From Escherichia coli (GTDB lineage: Bacteria; Pseudomonadota; Gammaproteobacteria; Enterobacterales; Enterobacteriaceae): 64,000 nucleotides of DNA. The stretch lies in assembly GCF_003334385.1 (NCBI RefSeq), contig NZ_QOWN01000022.1; one strand, given 5' to 3'. Shown in pieces: positions 58,695-59,681 of this stretch; position 1 is the stretch's first letter; each line of letters opens with the position of its first letter. Made by a program: the position numbers and the translations under genes. Below the pieces are notes generated by a model. That model searched no databases, was not told the DNA's origin, and was given only the letters and a program-made list of their open reading frames with translations.

Positions 58695-59630
58695 TTATTT
58701 CACTTCAACCACATTCAGCCGTAACTCATCCAACTGATTTTCATCTTCTTCTGGCTGCCAGCACGCCGGTTGTAGTGGGATCTCTTCGCGATCAAACGCC
58801 AGATCACCCCCGTTAACCACTTCAGAACCGTGGGTGATGCCTTTGAAATCGAACAGGTTGGTATCGCACAGATGCGACGGCACCACATTCTGCATCGCGC
58901 TGAACATCGTCTCGATACGCCCTGGATAACGTTTATCCCAGTCACGCAACATGTCAGCAATCACCTGACGTTGCAGGTTAGGCTGTGAACCGCACAGGTT
59001 GCACGGAATAATCGGGAACGCTTTTGCATCGGCAAATCGCTGAATATCTTTCTCGCGGCAGTAGGCCAGCGGACGAATAACGATATGTTTGCCATCATCG
59101 CTCATCAGTTTCGGAGGCATACCTTTCATCTTACCGCCGTAGAACATATTTAAGAACAACGTTTGCAGGATATCGTCACGATGGTGACCCAACGCGATCT
59201 TCGTCGCCCCCAGTTCCGTTGCGGTACGATAAAGGATACCGCGACGAAGGCGAGAACACAGTGAGCAAGTGGTTTTGCCCTCTGGAATCTTCTCTTTCAC
59301 GATACCGTAAGTATTCTCTTCAACAATCTTGTACTCAACGCCCAGCTTTTCAAGATACTCGGGCAGAACGTGTTCCGGGAAGCCCGGTTGCTTTTGATCG
59401 AGGTTAACAGCCACCAGCGAAAAATTGATTGGCGCGCTTTGCTGCAAATTGCGCAGAATCTCCAGCATGGTATAGCTGTCTTTACCCCCGGAGAGGCAAA
59501 CCATGATGCGATCGCCTTCTTCAATCATATTGAAGTCAGCAATGGCTTCGCCCACGTTACGACGCAGACGTTTTTGTAATTTGTTCAGGTTGTATTGTTC
59601 TTTCTTTGTAATTTGTTGATTTTCTTGCAT
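58695..59630 (-). CDS. ttcA: tRNA 2-thiocytidine biosynthesis protein TtcA
   Basis: 311 aa; PP-loop SGGKDS. Confidence 0.9.
59581..59606. other. candidate Rac prophage attL core
   Basis: ttgttcaggttgtattgttctttctt lies in ttcA codons 9-17, next to the integrase gene; matches the Rac att core as I recall it. Confidence 0.45.
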
Positions 59631-59681
59631 TATTTCAGTTCTCTGGTACTAAATGGGGCAAATTGGGGGCAAACTTTGCAA

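Follow-up and report, generated by a model that had tools for sequence, protein, structure and literature searches.

The left junction of a Rac-type prophage inside ttcA of Escherichia coli and the phage-borne 5' end of the gene

Phage 21 and the e14 element in icd are lambdoid elements that sit inside a protein-coding gene and bring a surrogate gene end; icd stays intact apart from a few substitutions, and the far junction retains a pseudogene fragment. In that case the 3' end of the gene is replaced and the promoter and translation start are host-encoded, whereas at ttcA, the gene considered in this study, it is the 5' end that is replaced, together with the start codon and all upstream signals. 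Because the replaced end is the 5' one, the start codon, the ribosome-binding region and the promoter would switch with the state of the prophage. Lambda attP and attL have in common with Rac an integrase with an arm-binding domain, repeated arm motifs (putative in Rac) on both sides of the core, an IHF consensus near the core and an excisionase gene beside int, but the Rac P' arm is only 75 bp long and overlaps the coding start and 5' untranslated region of the host gene. In Listeria, excision and integration of A118 and phi10403S likewise alter the state of the att-bearing host gene, comK (cited in PMC4632033). There, however, integration disrupts the gene and excision restores it, whereas ttcA is intact both ways and switches only its N terminus and upstream DNA. 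The ttcA site is a textbook-style case of a phage that enters a gene without destroying it and supplies a replacement end.

The same element has been described in E. coli K-12, with the same core, the same gene order and the same four-residue change in TtcA (PMC4632033, MG1655). Rac was located between ttcA and ttcC' (Liu et al. 2015, Sci Rep 5:16074, PMC4632033), and it was shown experimentally that, since attL and attR match imperfectly, excision alters four N-terminal residues of TtcA (PMC4632033). In the same study, strains without Rac were found to carry the post-excision type of TtcA, both variants were active when expressed from plasmids and differed in a carbenicillin assay, a phenotype of delta-ttcA was reported in the lysogen, and YdaQ was identified as the excisionase XisR, which binds attR (PMC4632033). 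Identical deletions of 23,060 bp at this site were reported in all nine sequenced genomes of a set of suppressor strains (PMC11014345). The junction inside ttcA is therefore already annotated and published, as are the change in the TtcA coding sequence and its effect on fitness, and the annotation of the locus stays as it is. What we add is incremental: we narrow the crossover, point out probable arm sites in the leader of ttcA and count how often fixed remnants occur.

We analysed a stretch of 64,000 nucleotides from an E. coli assembly (GCF_003334385.1, contig NZ_QOWN01000022.1), referred to here as the window. Its last 11.3 kb are 99.94% identical to MG1655 from position 1,405,000, with six substitutions and one single-base indel (window positions 53150, 53192, 61621, 61790, 63156, 63486 and 63704); the window therefore represents a Rac-bearing E. 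coli other than MG1655 itself, and none of the genomes in the collection that we searched matched it perfectly. The indel sits directly after the start of ralR. We read positions 59581-59681 as the attL of a Rac-type lambdoid prophage inside ttcA, which is the best explanation of the locus as a whole and to which we give a probability of about 95%. The features of the junction and its surroundings are as follows.

58695-59630, minus strand: ttcA coding sequence, tRNA 2-thiocytidine(32) synthetase, 311 aa (from the open reading frame and the RefSeq names under the match)
59581-59606, plus strand: 26-bp block TTGTTCAGGTTGTATTGTTCTTTCTT, identical in attL, attR and attB; the annotated att core of K-12 Rac (from sequence comparison)
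59607-59630, minus strand: phage-borne ttcA codons 1-8, MQENQQIT (from comparison of attL with the native end)
59631-59681, no strand: 51-bp spacer from the ttcA start to the intR stop; outer part of the attL P' arm and, in the lysogen, also the ttcA 5' untranslated region
59682-60917, minus strand: intR, tyrosine integrase, 411 aa (from the open reading frame, Pfam and RefSeq annotation)
60919-61134, minus strand: xisR (ydaQ), excisionase (position from the MG1655 annotation, function from PMC4632033)

The first-pass annotation of this DNA had placed an att core at 59581-59606 and had it encode TtcA residues 9-17 as KKEQYNLNK, and both the position and the frame were confirmed. TTGTTCAGGTTGTATTGTTCTTTCTT occurs once in the 64-kb window with up to three mismatches allowed, where 0 occurrences are expected by chance, and it is in frame with ttcA, covering codons 9-16 in full and the first two bases read of codon 17; codon 1 lies at 59630-59628 and codon 8 at 59609-59607. 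The same annotation had put intR 52 bp further on. The order is right, but the spacer measures 51 bp, 52 being the coordinate difference between 59682 and 59630. Inspection of the core by eye revealed no inverted repeats of the kind expected for core-type Int sites; TTGTTC is present twice in direct orientation.

A second copy of the core had been predicted about 23 kb downstream. In MG1655 an exact second 26-mer is found 23,060 bp downstream (L001, positions 6900 and 29960), in agreement with this prediction, and the right end of the window's own prophage lies beyond base 64000. The RefSeq annotation of MG1655 starts its 'cryptic prophage Rac' at the equivalent of window position 59581 and ends it at the second core copy, where the fragment at attR is annotated as a 51-bp pseudogene, ttcC, of 17 codons followed by a stop. 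SCU-104, one of the two genomes that we found to be most similar to the window, also carries an exact second copy, here 51,628 bp downstream (L034 position 513, L035 position 6141). The empty site is represented by strain 210221272, in which dbpA, ttcA, uspF and ompN follow one another without a prophage. Over the 196 bp that we aligned (60 + 26 + 110 bp), its attB is exactly the sum of the left side of attL, the core and the right side of attR.

To the right of the core, attL shares 17 of 24 bases with attR and attB through the start codon. The seven differing bases in codons 1-8 lead to four amino-acid changes between Rac-type and Rac-free ttcA, so that the N terminus reads MQENQQIT in the lysogen and MSQNQEIS at the empty site; the two proteins, both of 311 aa, are identical at 307 of 311 residues, all four differences falling at residues 2, 3, 6 and 8. 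Upstream of the ATG, phage-type and native DNA share 19 of 86 positions, which is the random level, and are unrelated. The first-pass annotation had staked its reading on a second core copy and on a ttcA 5' region distinct from that of Rac-free strains. Exact second copies exist in MG1655 and SCU-104, and the 5' region differs by four residues and unrelated upstream DNA; the interpretation as a prophage junction therefore holds.

We establish here the junction sequences of all four att forms, the reading frames across them and how the states of the locus are distributed among genomes. Recovery of the four att forms excludes the idea that the 26-mer is repeated by chance or arose as a target duplication of the transposon kind, to which we assign next to no weight: no chance matches are expected, a tyrosine integrase and an excisionase adjoin the 26-mer, and excision has been demonstrated experimentally (PMC4632033, PMC11014345). 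It could also be argued that MQENQQIT is the ancestral N terminus of the host protein and that MSQNQEIS arose by imprecise excision or drift. Beyond the standing of K-12 as the reference strain nothing speaks for this, and we consider it very improbable, as did Liu et al., who concluded likewise (PMC4632033). The attR of lysogens retains the native MSQNQEIS fragment and, running on without a break into uspF, the native upstream DNA, all of it identical to the empty site, and phage genomes and attP contigs hold MQENQ-type codons beside int without the body of ttcA. MQENQQIT is thus best read as phage-borne.

Two candidate features were rejected on closer inspection. Matches to Rac-free genomes that end at 59623 had suggested a longer core; they reflect megablast extension through the 17/24-identical mimic of codons 1-8. 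A match ending at 59581, in isolate 103 (NZ_LT615378.1), was not accepted as a biological variant, the assembly containing Ns and duplicated pieces of ttcA. It has two cores 229 bp apart (L003, 4900-5720) and Ns at exactly the three positions near the core where attL and attR differ, as if a population mixed for Rac excision had been assembled against a reference, or as an artefact of the assembly.

The claim that excision changes the 5' end of ttcA is borne out by the four-residue change reported after excision (PMC4632033), with which the attL and attR sequences agree. We note that the legend to Figure 4 of PMC11014345 gives three base changes and two changes in TtcA (Q6E, T8S) after excision of Rac, against the seven base and four residue changes that attL and attR predict over 59607-59630. 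The other four base changes (Q2S, E3Q) probably went unreported because of where the aligner set the breakpoint of the 23,060-bp deletion.

We next turned to the phage side, using IMG/VR contigs that match the phage-type ttcA 5' end (n=22). They fall into the following classes.

5 of 22 contigs (L019, L020, L021, L028, L033): intact attP, with Rac P arm, core, phage-type codons and int
12 of 22 contigs: attL junction with E. coli ttcA
2 of 22 contigs: contig begins at the match
3 of 22 contigs (L016, L017, L024): a different P' arm joined to a divergent ttcA, with 34 of 40 core-adjacent bases matching the window

In phage PHB10, the att-intR region of which has 67% DNA identity to the window, attP is interior to the phage record, between a gene for an SOS-response-associated peptidase and int, and consists of a core-like sequence followed by MQENQQNT with its ATG. 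PHB10 and the contigs with intact attP show that a family of ttcA-targeting phages carries the MQENQ-type replacement start. PHB10 and other ttcA-integrating relatives resemble the window's Rac in the use of ttcA as the site and in the MQENQ-type replacement 5' end; they differ from it in codons 6-8 and even in codon 12. The divergent class of contigs carries a P' arm and integrase of the PHB10 type, and its N-terminal variants are MQENQSNT and MQENQEIN. The ttcA joined to this arm possibly comes from another genus, and with such a flank this phage family may use the ttcA site beyond E. coli.

The position of the crossover can be narrowed with Rac-SA53. In this prophage attL and attR are identical over 15 bp only (TTGTTCAGGTTGTAT), and the next three bases are ATC in attL, the phage type, and TGT in attR, the host type; strand exchange must therefore fall to the left of these bases. 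We transferred the crossover to the window by homology, the att core, spacer and intR region of 1,361 bp being 96% identical to Rac-SA53, which yields one further feature.

59581-59595, no strand: strand-exchange segment TTGTTCAGGTTGTAT, predicted by homology to Rac-SA53

With exchange in this segment, the phage-derived DNA of ttcA would span about codon 12 to codon 1. Codons 9-12 are the same in the phage and host versions of the window strain, and Rac-SA53 shows Q12I in TtcA. The first-pass annotation had implicitly taken the entire 26-mer as the crossover core, with the boundary at its right edge and only codons 1-8 and the upstream DNA derived from the phage. This model fits K-12-type attL, attR and attB, which are identical over all 26 bp, and the window strain by itself cannot separate the two. 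We nevertheless regard it as quite unlikely. Tyrosine recombinases have overlap regions of 6-8 bp, the identity of attL and attR in Rac-SA53 stops after 15 bp, and the phage-type variants MDK9L1 and PHB10 also differ within the 26-mer. The assignment of codons 1-8, the upstream region and intR to the prophage side thus stands, and the boundary moves from the right edge of the 26-mer to a crossover that we place within 59581-59595.

The ttcA gene of the window is a hybrid: host DNA makes up its body, between crossover and stop codon, and phage DNA its 5' end. It displays the hallmarks of a gene-end-replacing site: the core lies in the coding sequence, the surrogate is in frame, the length of the open reading frame is kept and, in MG1655, the native end persists at attR. 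The attP of the phage carries, beside int, a match of 15-26 bp to ttcA codons 9-17, followed by imitation codons 1-8 with an ATG. IntR, an arm-binding tyrosine recombinase, would exchange strands within TTGTTCAGGTTGTAT (59581-59595), and integration fuses the body of host ttcA in frame to the phage-borne 5' end, keeping 311 aa and changing four N-terminal residues. The native 5' end and upstream DNA are thereby moved to the opposite prophage end, where the 17 codons form the pseudogene ttcC. In the lysogen, the ribosome-binding region and transcription signals of ttcA would then be located on phage DNA that is also the P' arm of attL, with its IHF site and two probable arm sites. Excision by IntR, XisR and IHF would restore the native arrangement.

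The sites within this arm were read from the following features.

59609-59621, plus strand: IHF consensus TAAnnnnTTGATW (TAATTTGTTGATT), within ttcA codons 4-8 (read from sequence)
59655-59662, plus strand: GGGGCAAA copy 1, putative arm-type IntR site (from repeat clustering and conservation in PHB10)
59666-59673, plus strand: GGGGCAAA copy 2, putative arm-type IntR site, 11 bp from copy 1 (on the same basis)

The P arm at attR contains three exact and two degenerate copies of GGGGCAAA, 105-155 bp from the core. The two arms thus account for five of six exact copies within 35 kb, against an overall expectation of 1.8, and the attP of PHB10 preserves both motif and arrangement despite diverged surroundings. 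IntR has an arm-binding domain (Pfam Arm-DNA-bind_2, 4e-26) in addition to the Phage_integrase domain (1.9e-22); given this domain and the clustering, we read the repeats as probable arm-type Int sites. IHF was found to bind transiently in vivo at TAAnnnnTTGATW near the start of ttcA, beside attL, in MG1655 (PMC8407004).

The first-pass annotation had also described the ttcA promoter as prophage-borne. The DNA upstream of the gene is all phage, which makes this statement one of geometry; a promoter was not located by sequence. A promoter scan and a relaxed hexamer scan of the 51-bp spacer returned no sigma-70 match that reached 9/12; the best hexamer pairs, at 7-8/12, are inside intR or overlap the ttcA ATG. 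Likewise, we found no terminator-like site between intR and ttcA. The literature that we searched contained no mapped ttcA promoter or transcription start site, and Liu et al. addressed neither native expression nor the promoter of ttcA, the word 'promoter' occurring once in another context (PMC4632033). With no credible promoter found in the spacer and no terminator-like site after intR, ttcA may be read through from intR and xisR or may start in the 3' end of intR; it is along these lines that we infer the transcription start in the lysogen. A promoter of its own inside the spacer is doubtful in our view. Some phage-borne signal must drive ttcA, all upstream DNA being phage, and decayed remnants of the prophage retain about 280 bp upstream of the gene, but the two GGGGCAAA repeats take up most of the spacer, the scans point elsewhere, and we rate read-through from intR and xisR, or a promoter within the last part of intR, no lower in likelihood.

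At the empty site, CTGACA-17-TACCAT, a 9/12 match some 100 bp upstream of ttcA and just past the uspF terminator (L002, 5156-5128), is a candidate for the native ttcA promoter. In lysogens the same sequence is found at attR upstream of ttcC (L001, about 30106-30134), pointing to ynaM, ynaE and pinR, so that the native promoter would point into the right end of the prophage. Since the 5' untranslated region and signals of lysogen ttcA would coincide with the P' arm of attL, one could imagine that occupancy by IHF and IntR, or read-through from intR and xisR, sets ttcA expression and ties s2C32 thiolation to the state of the prophage, and that in the roughly 19% of genomes with remnants this control has become permanently host-owned. 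We offer this as a speculative and unlikely extension.

To determine how widespread each state of the locus is, we surveyed 5,426 complete E. coli genomes, with the following result.

2,487 of 5,426 genomes (46%): contiguous empty site
1,840 of 5,426 genomes (34%): Rac-type intR and xisR adjoining ttcA
1,045 of 5,426 genomes (19%): decayed Rac-like remnant

In the remnant class, intR is reduced to its final 231 bp, and these adjoin a ttcA with the phage-type start. The end of intR is followed by about 2 kb of unrelated AT-rich DNA and then by a frameshifted fragment of sitD that abuts uspF. The two remnants that we examined (23AR0151, L004 3440-5900; WP4-W18-ESBL-08, L005) have one core copy, and the attR core, ttcC and the native upstream region were absent from both. 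The ranking of genome matches is consistent with about 1,000 genomes that have no intact attR. With most of intR gone from the remnants, and attR from the two examined, excision can no longer reverse the phage-type 5' end and upstream DNA of ttcA, which are fixed there.

SCU-104 (NZ_CP053284.1, 2289512-2341165) harbours a Rac-like prophage of 51.6 kb, compared with the 23-kb relic of K-12, and the window prophage may likewise exceed 23 kb. The SCU-104 prophage encodes the anti-phage pair iteA/iteS and trkG, and its right end, beside attR, carries sitABCD, an iron/manganese transporter, as cargo; as assembled, intR carries a frameshift and recE is interrupted by a stop codon. A full-length prophage of the SCU-104 type with sitABCD is the likely precursor of the decayed remnants.

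Finally, we searched window positions 57000-64000 against Rfam. The RalA antitoxin sRNA (RF02694, 225 bits) was the only match, with none at the ttcA junction; it overlaps the start of the ralR toxin gene (window 61238-61416, plus strand, and 61415-61621, minus strand). On the other side of ttcA, a REP-like palindromic element, gccggatgcgacgctggccgcgtcttatccggcc, is found at window positions 58600-58660, in the intergenic stretch where dbpA and ttcA converge.
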